A program made the translations under genes and the position numbers. The notes beneath the pieces were generated by a model. That model did not search any database and was not told the DNA's origin. It saw nothing but the letters and a program-made list of their open reading frames with translations. From positions 1 to 64,000 of IMG/VR virus record IMGVR_UViG_3300011336_000243: a stretch of 64,000 nucleotides of DNA. One strand, given 5' to 3'. Below, in pieces: positions 271 to 3,946 of this stretch (positions are counted from its first letter, which is position 1; every line of letters starts with the position of its first letter). Source of the stretch: a virus. Lineage: Duplodnaviria; Caudoviricetes.

Positions 271-468
271 ATGATAAAGATGACATTTACAACAGATTGC
301 AAAGATGAAGCTAAGGTACTTTTACACGCAGTAGAAAAGGCAATAGCTGTATCTGAACTAAAACAAAAACTAAGATATGGTTTAAAAGAACTTGACTTTG
401 GAGAAAACCATAACTACATTGAGCAGTTGTATTCTTTGATTTGCGAGATTGATAGTATAGGAGAATAA
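271..468 (+). CDS. Hypothetical protein (65 aa)
   Basis: Tightly packed + strand ORF starting 1 nt after the previous stop. Confidence 0.7.
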   Translation: MIKMTFTTDCKDEAKVLLHAVEKAIAVSELKQKLRYGLKELDFGENHNYIEQLYSLICEIDSIGE

Positions 469-608
469 CAACAGTACCACGATGCTTCCCGTAAGAACAG
501 CACACTTCCTGTGGTCTTTTTCTCACGTAAACGAATAGCCCAAGGCATAAGTTAAGGTGAATTACCAAACCTCTCTGTGGTAGACGTACTGCATGATGTT
601 TGGGACAT

Positions 609-713
609 AGTCAGGTGGCGGAATGGTAGACGCTAACATCTCTTAAGGTATTAGGGTATAAACGAAAAGAGAGAACGACCCTTACCATGCAGGTTCGATT
701 CCTGTCCTGACTA
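609..713 (+). tRNA. Non-canonical tRNA-like element (class II Leu/Tyr-type D arm, aberrant 55-nt anticodon/variable region)
   Basis: Acceptor AGTCAGG(609-615)/CCTGACT(706-712), A73 at 713; D arm GCG-GAATGGTAGA-CGC; T arm GCAGG-TTCGATT-CCTGT; no canonical 5-bp/7-nt anticodon arm. Confidence 0.75.
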
Positions 714-729
714 CTAATTAGAAACAAAT

Positions 730-1251
730 ATGAGCAGAAAAGAATACCTTATTTCTCAGGAGCGAGAAACCGCATTAACTCTAGAACTAGCAGAAAGACT
801 ACTTAGAGCAAACTTTAATGCAAGTAATACAGTAATAGTAACTGTATCAATGGACTATTCATCTAATGTAGGTCAGCTGTTACGACACGCACTAACAAAA
901 GATGGAGAAGTTTGTGATGGATTTGGTATAGACGTGCCTTATCCTGATGAAACCTGGGATGGAAGATATGCATACGAGCTATCGTCTTTATTAAGCATGT
1001 ATCACTACAAGCTGAACAACAAGAAGATACTTTTAGTTGAGGCTGGTGTTATTCGAGGTTCAAACTATAAGTTTGTAATAGAATGCCTTAAAACAAAGTT
1101 AAACCTACCGAATGTAATATATACGCTTGCTTTGTTTGAGAACGAGCACTCAGCGTTTAAGTCTGGCTTTGTTGGGGAGTTCTATGACAACGAAACGGAA
1201 GACTTAACCTTTTGGTGGGAGAAAGAAAACAATCACTGGACAAATGGATAA
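730..1251 (+). CDS. Type I phosphoribosyltransferase-like protein
   Basis: KKILLVEAGVIRGSNY aligns with the PRPP-binding loop (hhhhDD...TG) after a beta strand; C-terminal F.GEFY...LTFWWE resembles the xanthine/hypoxanthine PRT ending ..FPWE. Confidence 0.6.
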   Translation: MSRKEYLISQERETALTLELAERLLRANFNASNTVIVTVSMDYSSNVGQLLRHALTKDGEVCDGFGIDVPYPDETWDGRYAYELSSLLSMYHYKLNNKKILLVEAGVIRGSNYKFVIECLKTKLNLPNVIYTLALFENEHSAFKSGFVGEFYDNETEDLTFWWEKENNHWTNG

Positions 1252-2513: not shown

Positions 2514-2583
2514 CGTTTAGTAGTACAATGTAGTACGTCTAGTGTGATGCTAGAAAATAGGGGTTCGAGTCCTCTCTTAACGG
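2514..2583 (+). tRNA. Non-canonical tRNA-like element (nominal anticodon TGA, G33, short variable loop)
   Basis: Acceptor CGTTTAG/CTTAACG (6 of 7 bp); D arm GTAC-AATGTA-GTAC; anticodon arm TCTAG-TGTGATG-CTAGA; variable AAAT; T arm AGGGG-TTCGAGT-CCTCT; G73. Confidence 0.7.
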
Positions 2584-2585
2584 CT

Positions 2586-2888
2586 ATGGAAAAACAAGCA
2601 GTACAAGCCATCATAGAAAAGGCTTTTAAAAAGAAAGCGTTCATAACTCTGTTTACATCTGAAGGGCAAATCAGATTTAATACAGACAAAGAAGCTACAA
2701 CAAACTATGAAGATACCTACTTAGAAGTGGTATTAGATGATCAAACTATTCCTGTAGATGATAAGGGAATGACAGAAGTAGTTGATGTGTTTACTCATAT
2801 AGAGTACACTAACATTCAATCTATCACTTACTACGTACCTAGGCTTATTCAACCTGTTCCGAAAGGAAAAATAGTTGGGTTAGCTTAA
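2586..2888 (+). CDS. Hypothetical protein (start revised to ATG 2586, MEKQAVQ)
   Basis: The upstream in-frame part of the listed ORF lies inside the tRNA-like element. Confidence 0.7.
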   Translation: MEKQAVQAIIEKAFKKKAFITLFTSEGQIRFNTDKEATTNYEDTYLEVVLDDQTIPVDDKGMTEVVDVFTHIEYTNIQSITYYVPRLIQPVPKGKIVGLA

Positions 2889-3039: not shown

Positions 3040-3079
3040 CACTTATTAAAGTTTTATCTTGACTATAAAAGATACTATT

Positions 3080-3946
3080 ATGAACACAACTCCTTTAATA
3101 ACAAGGACAGAACGTAAGTCAATGATAATTAGACCATCAGGTAGAAGCAGTGACTTTATTACTCCTTCATTTGACTTTGGCTGTTTAGCTCAATGCACGT
3201 ACTGTTACCTTAAACGATACAAAGAGTCTGGAGTAGATATTGCTACTAATGAACACGGTATTGTGAACTCTGTAATAAGACATCATAAAAAGCTACCATC
3301 TAAAGTTGCTAATCAAACTCATCCTACCAAATGGACTTATGATGTTGGTTGTAACCATGATGTAGCTCTTCAGTGGAAGTATCACGATTATCCTAAGATA
3401 TTTAGTAAGCTGATTAGTTACGACATCTTCCCGACATTTGCAACAAAGTACGTAAACAATAAACTACTTGAGTACAACCCTAAACAACAAGCTAGGATTA
3501 GGTTTAGCTTAATGCCACAGGTAATCAGTAGCGTAGTTGAGCCTAATACTTCACTTATTACAGATAGGATTAAAGCTATTAATGAGTTTACTAAAGCAGG
3601 ATGGGATGTCCACATTAACTTTAGTCCTATTATCATCCATAAGAATTGGTTGACAAACTATACTGCTTTATTTACAGAGATAAACGATATTGTAGAAGAT
3701 AAAGATAAAGTCTTAGCAGAGTGTATTTTTCTTACGCATAATGTTAAGAAGCATGAGGCTAATCTTAAAGTCAATGCAGAAGCAGAGTCTTTACTATGGG
3801 TACCAAATTTTCAAGAATCTAAAACAAGTCAGTATGGAGGAGAGAATATTCGGTACGAAGTAGGATTTAAGCAAAAAGCAATCTACAGTTTTACTAATCT
3901 TCACGACTCTATAATCCCATGGAACAAAATACGCTATATTTTTTAA
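3080..3946 (+). CDS. Spore photoproduct lyase-like radical SAM protein
   Basis: GCLAQCTYCYL (CxxxCxxC plus YL); YDVGCNHD equivalent to SplB FEAACTSD; RFSLMP; HINFSPII; start set at ATG 3080. Confidence 0.8.
   Translation: MNTTPLITRTERKSMIIRPSGRSSDFITPSFDFGCLAQCTYCYLKRYKESGVDIATNEHGIVNSVIRHHKKLPSKVANQTHPTKWTYDVGCNHDVALQWKYHDYPKIFSKLISYDIFPTFATKYVNNKLLEYNPKQQARIRFSLMPQVISSVVEPNTSLITDRIKAINEFTKAGWDVHINFSPIIIHKNWLTNYTALFTEINDIVEDKDKVLAECIFLTHNVKKHEANLKVNAEAESLLWVPNFQESKTSQYGGENIRYEVGFKQKAIYSFTNLHDSIIPWNKIRYIF

Follow-up and report, generated by a model that had tools for sequence, protein, structure and literature searches.

The locus and its tRNA-shaped RNA

The stretch of DNA analysed here (hereafter the window, 64,000 nt, positions 1 to 64,000 of IMG/VR record IMGVR_UViG_3300011336_000243) belongs to a distant crAss-like phage, with a terminase about 30% identical to Crassvirales and with Bacteroidota as the presumed hosts. 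Between two short open reading frames lie a conserved leader of 139 nt with three hairpins (470-608) and, fused to it, a gene for a tRNA-shaped RNA that has no usable anticodon arm (Table 1). Homologues of the downstream ORF were found in 16 viral contigs, none of which carried the RNA module upstream.

Table 1. Coordinates of the RNA module and of the flanking ORFs within the window.
Positions	Strand	Feature	Details
271-468	+	Upstream ORF	65 aa; stop codon 466-468, 1 nt before the leader, which starts at 470
470-523	+	Leader hairpin P1, AbiFr-like RNA	Two-tier hairpin 476-515 with apical CCCGUAAGAAC, followed by U-tract 517-521; candidate AbiF pseudo-antitoxin
523-560	+	Leader hairpin P2	Stem TCAC 523-526 / GTGA 557-560 closing the loop AACGAAUAGCCCAAGGCAUAAGUU
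565-603	+	Leader hairpin P3	CCAAAC...GUUUGG; ends 5 nt before the tRNA-like 5' end
608	+	U(-1)	Nucleotide before the predicted RNase P cleavage site (608/609)
609-633	+	Shell 5' half	Acceptor strand AGTCAGG 609-615; U8 G9; D arm 618-633 with stem GCG 618-620 / CGC 631-633, G13.A22 and a Leu-type loop (A14 A15 U16 G18 G19 U20 A20a)
634-688	+	Private core of 55 nt, in place of the anticodon and variable arms	Linker 634-646; bulged hairpin 647-686 (GGTA/TACC plus AGGGT/ACCCT, 20-nt purine-rich loop); A687-U688 (U48); possible 6-bp pseudoknot 639-644 (UCUCUU) with 667-672 (AAGAGA)
689-713	+	Shell 3' half	T arm 689-705 with stem GCAGG 689-693 / CCTGT 701-705 and loop TTCGATT; acceptor strand CCTGACT 706-712, pairing 7/7 with 609-615; discriminator A73 at 713
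714-716	+	Trailer CUA	CCA not encoded
730-1251	+	Downstream ORF, phrog_29004	173 aa, function unknown; start 16 nt after A73

A base-by-base check of the coordinates confirmed the observation on which the original prediction rested, namely a perfect acceptor stem, a Leu-type D arm, a canonical T arm and A73 surrounding exactly 55 nt that do not form the usual anticodon and variable arms. The Rfam tRNA model (RF00005) scored 609-713 at 36.4 bits, against a gathering score of 29, treating the middle as an insertion, whereas default ARAGORN, one of the programs proposed in advance as a check, made neither a tRNA nor a tmRNA call. A 5-bp anticodon stem with a 7-nt loop is absent, since nothing pairs at 635-639 and the minimum free energy fold leaves 634-646 unpaired. 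RNAfold recovered the roughly 40-nt bulged hairpin of the core, but not the 3-bp TAA/TTA anticodon mini-hairpin that had also been proposed, which is therefore not supported by folding; the CTCTTAA sequence is present and, as predicted, has no stem. Folding energy alone is not significant for the element (z = -1.38) or for its core (z = -1.09), and the evidence that it is more than a chance sequence comes from the covariance-model score and from its family. The possible pseudoknot was found by inspection, has a chance probability of about 0.03 and is not conserved in the look-alikes.

Searches for relatives of the region by blastn against GenBank phages gave no match for the element or its flanks, and the short shell halves hit only ordinary tRNA-Leu D arms and generic T arms. 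Three unannotated hits were inspected and corresponded to a normal cyanophage tRNA-Leu(UAA), a Pseudanabaena phage tRNA-Leu with an insert of roughly 130 nt and a Brochothrix phage Leu-type D arm with a long insert, none of them having this shell. Neither the leader nor the cores matched any Rfam family other than tRNA. The core was also considered as an antisense guide to the phage's own genome, but only chance 9-10-mers were found, the one nearby 9-mer (644-652 against 743-751) not being significant.

A family of phage RNAs with a common shell and private cores

The element belongs to a large family in uncultured phages. Thirty-six contigs share the D arm and T loop with a middle of 44-70 nt, and at least 120 IMG/VR contigs carry a near-identical 3' half (T loop TTCGAWT, T-stem start not constrained), giving 151 distinct elements of 54-196 nt that fall into 130 core clusters. 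The window matches both halves of the common acceptor/T-arm minihelix (AGTCAGG...CAGGTTCGAWTCCTGTCCTGACT-A) exactly, and its 5' half is the most common of the family. No canonical anticodon arm exists in the window element or in most of the about 150 relatives. Only 8 of 185,579 species genomes hold the 5' half, all 8 being MAG contigs and none a normal tRNA-Leu; the acceptor sequence was found in no bacterial tRNA-Leu in this set. Full-text literature searches found no description of this shell family, and a 2026 preprint on skipping-rope, DUF2693-FD and salivarius-1 mimics concerns other RNAs.

Covariation in relatives had been named beforehand as a test of the prediction, and it was observed: all 7 acceptor pairs show compensatory double changes, 99.1% of cells are paired and 0 of 500 shuffles reach the observed values. 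G.U pairs occur in the acceptor but no A.C pairs, so selection acts on RNA of this strand. The flanks are also conserved, with T at -1 in 126 of 151 members, C at position 74 in 149, C at position 75 in only 7 and A at position 76 in 108, whereas U48 is present in 120; the window itself has T608 and C714-T715-A716. RNase P prefers U(-1), and together with C74 and a non-C at 75 this points to RNase P, RNase Z and CCA addition, although no expression or processing data were obtained, and only the annotation of phage T5 RNA1 as a stable RNA speaks to accumulation as a processed stable RNA.

In contrast to the shell, the cores are unrelated in sequence but stay structured. In 15 multi-member clusters, 8 pairs changed on both sides, 10 changed on one side and kept pairing and 1 broke, with the reservation that the structures were predicted from the same alignments, which favours pairing. 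Cores also fold better than shuffled sequences (mean z = -0.63, p = 3e-10). For the window's own core, blastn-short against about 3 Mb of related loci found no homologue, so that its structure has no covariation support of its own, and pattern searches for cores like it found only a recurring hairpin base (UAAGGUA...UACCAU). TAAG (62 of 130 against 37 expected) and GGTA are both enriched in the cores, an enrichment that is unexplained, but TTAAG, considered as a retained Leu(UAA) loop, is not significantly so (z = 1.8).

The leader and its homology to the AbiF antitoxin RNA

The leader has 13 homologues, in which 98.5% of cells are paired and 10 of 25 pairs show double changes, against 28-39% of paired cells in slid controls. 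P3 alone has 15 pairs, 7 of them with compensatory changes and 97.9% of cells paired. The P2 stem covaries by eye (TCAC/GTGA, CCAC/GTGG, CCGT/ACGG, CCGA/TCGG), and its loop is near-invariant in the 13 copies, with the proviso that its 3' part, AGGCATAAGTT, was fixed by the search pattern. A shell follows within 4-10 nt in 12 of the 13. The leader is not, however, a general companion of shells, because the covariance model R1 found it in only a few of 200 shell-bearing loci, so the link may be local to this lineage.

The first hairpin is homologous to the RNA found directly upstream of Abi_2/AbiF genes in Bacteroidia, which is AbiFr, the RNA antitoxin of AbiF (abiF motif RNA, Rfam RF03085; PbAbiF-ncRNA complex PDB 8VZ6; RCd22 in C. 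difficile). Model R1 hit 20 of 30 Abi_2 loci, always upstream of and co-directional with the gene and just behind a TAnnTTTG promoter box, with E-values from 7e-7 to 0.055 (17 of the 20 below 0.01), whereas it gave only 4 hits in 1.68 Mb of phage loci. The shared features are the 5' AACAGUAC, a covarying basal stem, the 3' internal loop CAC.., the inner stem, the apical CCCGUAAGAAC loop (CCCGUAAGA-type) and the U-tract, and related phages even keep the same promoter box in front. The common two-tier fold rests on an alignment and on individual folds of 11 phage and 17 bacterial copies; as the alignment is misregistered by one column between the phage and bacterial basal stems, pair counts were not run on it and the individual folds were used instead. 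The Rfam abiF model did not hit window positions 380-760 at E up to 10, and matched a bacterial copy (locus L373) only weakly, with 26.9 bits against a gathering score of 37. The window has no abiF gene behind the hairpin, which is followed by two further conserved hairpins, the tRNA-like RNA and the phrog_29004 ORF, and it is therefore a homologue out of context (a mimic) and not a resident antitoxin. Abi_2 occurs in 46 of the 401 Bacteroidia genomes examined. In the same 401 genomes, P2-P3 and the core gave 6 and 4 weak hits, respectively, as expected by chance; one hit lay in an unpublished genome (G097), on which no claim rests, and a 22-nt match of the P3 strand in a repeated palindromic element of another genome (G134) is probably chance.

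The module appears to be accessory. Three phages that are 88-91% identical (L114, L357 and L348) carry 2, 1 and 0 shells, respectively, behind the same leader, showing that shells are gained, lost and swapped between near-identical phages and that the leader can do without a shell. Leader-bearing contigs share only one ORF with the window phage (53-57% aa identity), while their leaders are 83-87% identical in nucleotides where this was measured (L114 and a further contig, L257).

Interpretation and alternative explanations

The explanation favoured here, with moderate confidence, is that positions 470-716 form an RNA-only accessory counter-defence cassette that makes two small RNAs from one transcript. 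In this model, the first hairpin of the leader copies AbiFr, the cis-encoded RNA antitoxin that keeps the host AbiF abortive-infection toxin (Abi_2, a HEPN RNase) inactive, and, when made by the phage in trans, would act as a pseudo-antitoxin and stop AbiF from firing. AbiFr neutralises AbiF by direct binding (PMC12737573) and an abiF-motif RNA acts in trans (10.1101/2025.04.15.648962), but binding of the phage hairpin to AbiF was not assayed here. The tRNA-shaped RNA behind it keeps every part of a Leu-type tRNA that maturation enzymes read, but has a private structured core instead of an anticodon arm, so that it cannot decode. Host RNase P would cut between U608 and A609, which would also make the 3' end of the leader, RNase Z would cut after A713 and the CCA-adding enzyme would complete a stable RNA of about 108 nt. 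The shell would thus be a processing and stability scaffold and the core a payload binding some host factor, for which no target is known. The P1 U-tract could, however, terminate transcription before the shell is reached, and the compensatory changes in cores would also fit a mere requirement to fold out of the way of the shell. What the analysis has demonstrated is the structure of the shell, its membership of a large phage-specific family, the conservation of pairing in shell, cores and leader, the homology of P1 to the RNA upstream of bacterial abiF genes, and the turnover of shells between near-identical phages; transcription and processing, neutralisation of AbiF, any function of the core and aminoacylation are only inferred.

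Phage tRNA-like stable RNAs have been known since T4 and T5 and have never been given a function. The closest example is phage T5 RNA1, annotated together with RNA2 and RNA3 as a tRNA-like stable RNA with unknown functions (AY543070). It has an acceptor stem (GGAATA/TGTTCC), a Leu-type D arm (GCCGGAATTGGTAGACGG), a T arm and a core of about 80 nt in place of the anticodon arm, lies in the phage tRNA cluster and scores below the Rfam tRNA threshold (24 bits), and T5 RNA2 even shares the T arm CAGGTTCGAATCCTG. Its acceptor sequence and core differ from those of the window, blastn finds no relation, its host is E. coli, it has no AbiFr-like leader and, its function being also unknown, it offers no mechanism to borrow. 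The present data add that such an RNA belongs to a very large, phage-specific family with an invariant tRNA top half and swappable structured cores, that the flanks of the family carry the signatures of RNase P, RNase Z and CCA processing, and that in one lineage the RNA is physically fused to a phage copy of an RNA antitoxin of a Cas13-related abortive-infection nuclease common in the presumed host class. This gives the first concrete and testable context for these RNAs, namely counter-defence, and suggests that phage tRNA clusters double as factories for small anti-defence RNAs; it would also supply a set of compact RNA inhibitors of HEPN nucleases.

The logic proposed for the leader is that reported for pseudo-ToxI of phage phiTE (Blower et al. 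2012), a phage-encoded mimic of a type III RNA antitoxin that keeps an abortive-infection RNase inactive, although the toxin there is ToxN, ToxI is a tandem repeat processed by its toxin, and release of the present mimic by tRNA-processing enzymes is an inference. The shell would also be a natural precedent for the engineered tRNA scaffold (Ponchon and Dardel 2007), in which a tRNA body carries foreign structured RNA in place of the anticodon arm and gets its processing and stability from tRNA enzymes; here the core is not a simple extension of the anticodon stem, as a single-stranded linker of 8-17 nt precedes a hairpin that abuts the T arm. Canonical class II tRNA-Leu shares the acceptor, D arm, T arm, A73 and the Levitt pair A15:U48, but has the 5-bp/7-nt anticodon stem-loop at position 27-43 that is missing here. 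The tRNA-like domain of tmRNA and the bacterial Y RNA (YrlA) mimics are also non-decoding RNAs with a tRNA-like acceptor/T-arm module, but the element has no G3:U70 (its 3:70 pair is T-A), no tag ORF and no Rfam hit to such RNAs, and YrlA is circularly permuted relative to tRNA, whereas here the ends are in the acceptor stem.

A more speculative extension, possible but not likely on present evidence, is that the hypervariable cores are, like the AbiFr-like hairpin, copies or mimics of host regulatory or defence RNAs or of their protein-binding sites. Phages would then use the invariant tRNA top half as a universal, recombination-friendly display and processing platform, cut by RNase P and RNase Z, CCA-tailed and perhaps leucylated, amounting to a swappable arsenal of RNA decoys, an RNA counterpart of anti-defence protein islands. 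If true, this would be of great interest.

The original prediction had instead proposed a chargeable, non-decoding tRNA mimic acting as a decoy for anticodon nucleases or tRNA-sensing defences, or as a non-ribosomal aminoacyl donor, an interpretation that is partly supported. The non-decoding character is supported. Charging by host LeuRS is plausible, as the element has the E. coli LeuRS identity set (A73 at 713, A14 at 622, A15:U48 at 623:688, G18G19 at 625-626 and A20a at 628, with the D/T-loop tertiary pairs), which works without the anticodon and variable arms (PMC9976931, citing Larkin 2002), but it was not assayed and LeuRS rules for Bacteroidota were lacking. A73 is near-universal in the family (28 of 31 where it was not fixed by the search pattern). 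On the other hand, roughly 30% of elements with the same acceptor and T arm have non-Leu or odd D arms, and one is a canonical tRNA-Lys(UUU); the invariant part is therefore the acceptor/T minihelix rather than Leu identity. The decoy idea gains indirect support from the fusion to an AbiFr homologue and from the coming and going of the element between near-identical phages, and Cas13a, a descendant of AbiF, cuts tRNA anticodons (cited in 10.1101/2025.04.15.648962). Nothing shows, however, that the tRNA-like part is itself a decoy for an anticodon nuclease, for which an RNA without an anticodon loop would be odd. The donor idea has no support, no tRNA-dependent transferase or tRNA-metabolism gene having been recognised among the ORFs scanned, which cover only part of the genome. 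As a full explanation, a leucylated 3' end as the point of the RNA does not account for 130 unrelated structured cores and is considered unlikely.

About equally doubtful is the view that the shell is pure punctuation, existing only so that RNase P and RNase Z free the leader RNA and give the downstream mRNA a short 16-nt leader, with a core that merely folds out of the way. The U(-1) and the non-CCA trailer would fit, as would the short distance to the next ATG, a second tRNA-like gene that ends 2 nt before ATG 2586, the arrays in which leader and AbiFr-like hairpins are flanked by shells or tRNAs on both sides, and the extreme core variability, expected under relaxed constraint. Against it, cores are long (up to about 146 nt) in compact phage genomes although members of 54-72 nt exist and would suffice, core helices are kept by compensatory change and cores fold better than shuffles, the near-identical L348 lacks the shell at this junction, so that the cut is dispensable, and up to 6 shells with different cores occur in one tRNA array.

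An intron-containing tRNA-Leu is very unlikely. In intron mode ARAGORN proposes Leu(AAG) with a 21-nt intron at 649-669, and CTTAAGG resembles a Leu(UAA) anticodon loop, which, like the TAAG enrichment, fits descent from tRNA-Leu(UAA). The model needs a poor D stem and a 4-bp anticodon stem, however, and on 27 relatives the same program gives 14 different amino acids (Phe, Val, Leu, Asn, Glu, Ser, Ala, Asp, Tyr, His, Pro, Gln, Thr, Ile) with introns at varying positions. Inspection of 639-674 revealed no 3-4-3 bulge-helix-bulge, no Rfam intron was hit, an insert of 21 nt is far below group I size and the host is bacterial.

A decaying pseudogene or chance sequence is equally improbable: default ARAGORN misses the element, its folding energy is not significant and its core has no homologue, but the situation specified in advance as fatal to the prediction, relatives with an intact tRNA beside a randomly decayed copy, was not encountered, since no relative carries an intact tRNA at this locus, the shell is intact to the base and shared by at least 150 elements with compensatory changes, the flanking processing signals are conserved, and decay would not spare both halves and rebuild a 9-bp hairpin between them. 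Least likely is a DNA-level element such as an attP, a recombination site or a cassette boundary, suggested by identical 25-nt halves flanking variable inserts and by the cassette-like turnover of shells, because the acceptor covariation is a signature of RNA on this strand, the D-loop and T-loop tertiary nucleotides and U(-1)/C74 are conserved, no tyrosine integrase is found in the 92%-complete genome, T5 RNA1 is annotated as a stable RNA, and recombination between identical halves can explain the swapping without being the function.

Architecture of the tRNA-like element and its genomic setting

The sequence of the element was found to be as stated in the original prediction, so that its observation holds: the two acceptor strands pair 7/7, the D arm contains a G13.A22 and a loop of tRNA-Leu type, and exactly 55 nt separate the D and T arms. 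The Rfam tRNA model scores 609-713 at 36.4 bits against a threshold of 29, with the middle portion treated as an insertion, whereas ARAGORN in its default mode does not call it. RNAfold gives a 9-bp bulged hairpin in the middle region and leaves the preceding linker unpaired. The 3-bp anticodon mini-hairpin that had also been proposed is not predicted, and the folding energy alone is unremarkable (z = -1.38). A 6-bp pseudoknot between linker and loop is possible but has no comparative support, and a 9-nt stretch of the core (TAAGGTATT) is complementary to codons 5-7 of the downstream ORF, a match that is at chance level (blast E = 11).

Coordinates of the features described (window positions unless a locus is named)
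Feature	Position	Strand	Details
First ORF, open-ended	3-269		matches C-terminus of DNA repair exonuclease family phrog_704
Upstream ORF	271-468		stop lies 1 nt before the leader
Conserved leader	470-608		139 nt
Nucleotide -1	608		T
tRNA-like element	609-713		followed by C-T-A
Acceptor strands	609-615 / 706-712		AGTCAGG / CCTGACT
D stem	618-620 / 631-633		3 bp
Region between D and T arms	634-688		55 nt
Unpaired linker	634-646
Possible pseudoknot	639-644 with 667-672		6 bp
Core stretch complementary to downstream ORF	644-652 versus 743-751		9 nt
Bulged hairpin	647-686		9 bp
T arm			GCAGG/CCTGT around TTCGATT
Discriminator	713		A
Start of homology with relatives of the downstream ORF	722-736
Second tRNA-like gene	2514-2584	+	71 nt
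ORF in frame with the ATG after the second gene	2544-2888		in-frame ATG at 2586
Spore photoproduct lyase-like ORF	3059-3946	+	295 aa
Last ORF of the contig	L111:17923-19083 (genome 81923-83083)		phrog_704
tRNA-Lys(UUU) in a phage array	L160:13030-13101	-	anticodon loop CTTTTAA
AbiFr-like hairpins in other phage arrays	L121:2639-2704, L136:898-962, L167:3896-3960
Freshwater-1 RNA match in a phage array	L134:4124-4186
Leu-type D arm, Pseudanabaena phage PA-SR01	L362 (MT234670 117490-118310)
Leu-type D arm, Brochothrix phage ADU4	L363 (OM135992 8334-9155)

The virus record is a single contig of 83,179 bp with 36% GC, of which the window is the first 64 kb. The genome encodes on the + strand a DNA polymerase A, Dda-like and DnaB-like helicases, an RIIA-like protein, a DNA ligase and exonucleases, and on the - strand a structural block that includes proteins of 4099 and 1765 aa. 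Its terminase is about 30% identical to those of Crassvirales infecting Bacteroides and Flavobacterium, from which we infer a distant crAss-like phage of Bacteroidota. No integrase was found, and no tRNA-metabolism gene was recognised among the ORFs scanned. One ORF matches Pfam Spore photoproduct lyase (PF20903, E = 1.4e-18), a radical-SAM DNA repair enzyme that is unusual in a crAss-like phage. The open-ended first ORF matches the same exonuclease family as the last ORF of the contig, which suggests a terminal overlap or a circularly permuted assembly.

The genome carries only two tRNA-like genes, and both are aberrant. The second one scores 43.5 bits with the Rfam tRNA model and is a class I cloverleaf with the loop TGTGATG (G at 33), a nominal anticodon TGA and G73 followed by CTA. 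Its 3' end lies 2 nt before the ATG that is in frame with ORF 2544-2888, meaning that processing would leave a near-leaderless mRNA.

A large family with a common shell and unrelated cores

A pattern fixing only the D arm and the T loop, with a gap of 44-70 nt, found 36 viral contigs, almost all of which have the same acceptor stem or a compensated variant, while their middles are unrelated. Shorter members also exist, with 4-5 bp stems capped by loops of 4-7 nt that lack U33. Covariation in relatives, one of the checks proposed at the outset, was examined on an alignment of 31 members: all seven acceptor pairs show changes on both sides, 99.1% of cells pair, and G.U pairs occur but A.C pairs do not, with 0 of 500 shuffles and no slid control coming close. 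A search with the 3' half alone returned at least 120 contigs, giving 151 distinct elements of 54-196 nt, up to six per locus and usually inside phage tRNA arrays, whose cores fall into 130 clusters. The 5' half, in turn, occurs in only 8 of 185,579 species genomes; all 8 are MAG contigs carrying odd cores, and none is a normal tRNA-Leu.

About 70% of the members have the Leu-type D arm. The rest vary, and one (in the phage array of locus L160) is a canonical tRNA-Lys(UUU), with a normal D arm, that carries exactly the same acceptor stem and T arm as the shell family. The invariant unit is therefore the acceptor/T minihelix, which is shared between decoding and non-decoding genes in one array. 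Another phage tRNA array (locus L134), holding three shell elements, also contains a match to Rfam freshwater-1 RNA at 70.1 bits, just under its threshold of 72.

The flanks of the 151 elements show signs of tRNA-type maturation. U is found at -1 in 126/151, C74 in 149/151, A76 in 108/151 and U48 in 120/151, but C at position 75 in only 7/151. CCA is thus not encoded and is even avoided, which fits RNase Z cleavage followed by CCA addition, while U(-1) fits RNase P. The window element agrees with this pattern, which also explains the 'CTA' ends that had been remarked on separately at first reading.

The cores are structured. In the 15 clusters with more than one member, 19 predicted core pairs vary, 8 of them on both sides, 10 on one side with pairing kept, and 1 broken, although the structures were predicted from the same alignments. 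Across 114 cluster representatives, cores fold better than dinucleotide shuffles (mean z = -0.63, p = 3e-10), the core of the window giving z = -1.09. The latter has no homologue in about 3 Mb of related loci, and only the hairpin base UAAGGUA...UACCAU, next to the T arm, recurs. In otherwise unrelated cores TAAG is enriched (62/130 clusters against 37 expected, z = 5.4), as is GGTA in the first 22 nt (26 against 10.7, z = 4.7), for which we have no explanation.

A conserved leader and its homology to AbiFr

The 139 nt directly upstream of the element match two other contigs at 83-87% identity, where they are likewise followed at once by a shell, with a different core. A metagenome scan brought the total to 13 distinct copies. 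Three hairpins are supported in this leader, with 98.5% of cells pairing and 10 of 25 pairs carrying double changes, while slid controls reach 28-39%; a fourth stem (P2) covaries by eye. The leader is not in Rfam. Contigs carrying it share only one ORF with this phage, at 53-57% aa, and the RNA is far better conserved than its surroundings. In arrays (leader-bearing contigs L257 and L352) the leader starts one base after the A73-C of the preceding shell. Moreover, three related phages (L114, L357 and L348) are 88-91% identical over kilobases, yet carry two, one and no shells, respectively, behind the same leader, and L348 resumes with the same CTAATTAGAAAC that follows the shell of the window. 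The shell is therefore an accessory, swappable cassette.

The possibility that the first hairpin of the leader copies the RNA antitoxin of AbiF was tested with Abi_2 (PF07751) loci from 401 genomes of the class of a Sediminibacterium MAG, 46 of which have the gene. When 30 of those loci were searched with R1, the covariance model of the leader, twenty were hit (E from 7e-7 to 0.055, 17 below 0.01). Every hit is on the strand of the gene, about 80-240 nt upstream of the Abi_2 domain, directly behind a Bacteroidota -7 box (TAnnTTTG), and followed by a U-tract and the abiF start. The same model gives only 4 hits in 1.68 Mb of phage loci. Phage and bacterial copies share AACAGUAC, a covarying basal stem, the inner stem, the CCCGUAAGA-type loop and GGUCUUUU, and all 28 fold alike. 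The Rfam abiF model touches the bacterial copy only weakly (26.9 bits against 37) and does not touch the window. The first hairpin of the leader is a homologue of AbiFr.

Three related phages (L114, L348 and L357) carry in front of the AbiFr-like hairpin the same TAnnTTTG box and spacing (TATATTTGCATC|AACAGTACC) as the bacterial abiF loci (L364-L393), which suggests that promoter and RNA were captured together. The window itself lacks this box, and its leader starts 1 nt after the stop of the upstream ORF. AbiFr-like hairpins (R1 E-values 2e-4 to 3e-3) also sit between tRNA and tRNA-like genes in other phage arrays (L121, L136 and L167), where they are followed by a different conserved segment (GATATYGGGAAATTGGA...TTTATGGGTGCACGACGGTGCC).

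Possible role of the cassette and alternative readings

AbiFr binds and neutralises the HEPN RNase AbiF (PDB 8VZ6; PMC12737573), and an abiF-motif RNA works in trans in C. difficile. A phage copy with no abiF gene behind it is most simply a pseudo-antitoxin, as reported for pseudo-ToxI of phage phiTE. The best reading of the locus is thus an RNA-only counter-defence cassette, in which tRNA-processing enzymes would release an AbiF decoy and a stable tRNA-shaped RNA whose core is a second payload of unknown target. The structure, the family membership, the conservation, the AbiFr homology and the cassette behaviour are established by the present analysis, whereas transcription, processing, neutralisation of AbiF, any role of the core and aminoacylation are inferred.

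The initial interpretation, a chargeable non-decoding tRNA mimic, is partly supported. According to a review (PMC9976931), E. coli LeuRS needs A73, A15:U48, G18G19, A20a and the D/T-loop contacts, and variants lacking the anticodon and variable arms are still charged. The window element has all of these, so charging is plausible, but it was not assayed, and the non-Leu D arms in the family argue that it is not the common denominator. A second alternative, in which the shell would be an essential punctuation for transcript cleavage, is argued against by its gain and loss behind the same leader in near-identical phages. An intron-bearing tRNA is less likely still: ARAGORN in intron mode proposes Leu(AAG) with a 21-nt intron, but only with a poor D stem, and on 27 relatives of the element it yields 14 different amino acids with shifting intron sites, which we take as an ad hoc fit. 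Decay can also be set aside, since an intact tRNA at this site in relatives, specified in advance as evidence that would overturn the mimic, was not seen: of sixteen contigs encoding relatives of the downstream ORF (49-93% aa), none has any tRNA, and homology starts only beyond the element.

Full-text literature searches found no description of the family. The closest published analogue of the tRNA-like part is RNA1 of phage T5, which was confirmed to have the same architecture and is annotated as a stable RNA of unknown function. Unannotated Leu-type D arms were also seen in cultured phages: Pseudanabaena phage PA-SR01 has a tRNA-Leu(UAA)-like 5' half, an insert of roughly 130 nt, possibly an intron, and then a T arm, whereas Brochothrix phage ADU4 has a D arm followed by more than 150 nt with no T arm in view, next to tRNA-Met and tRNA-Lys.
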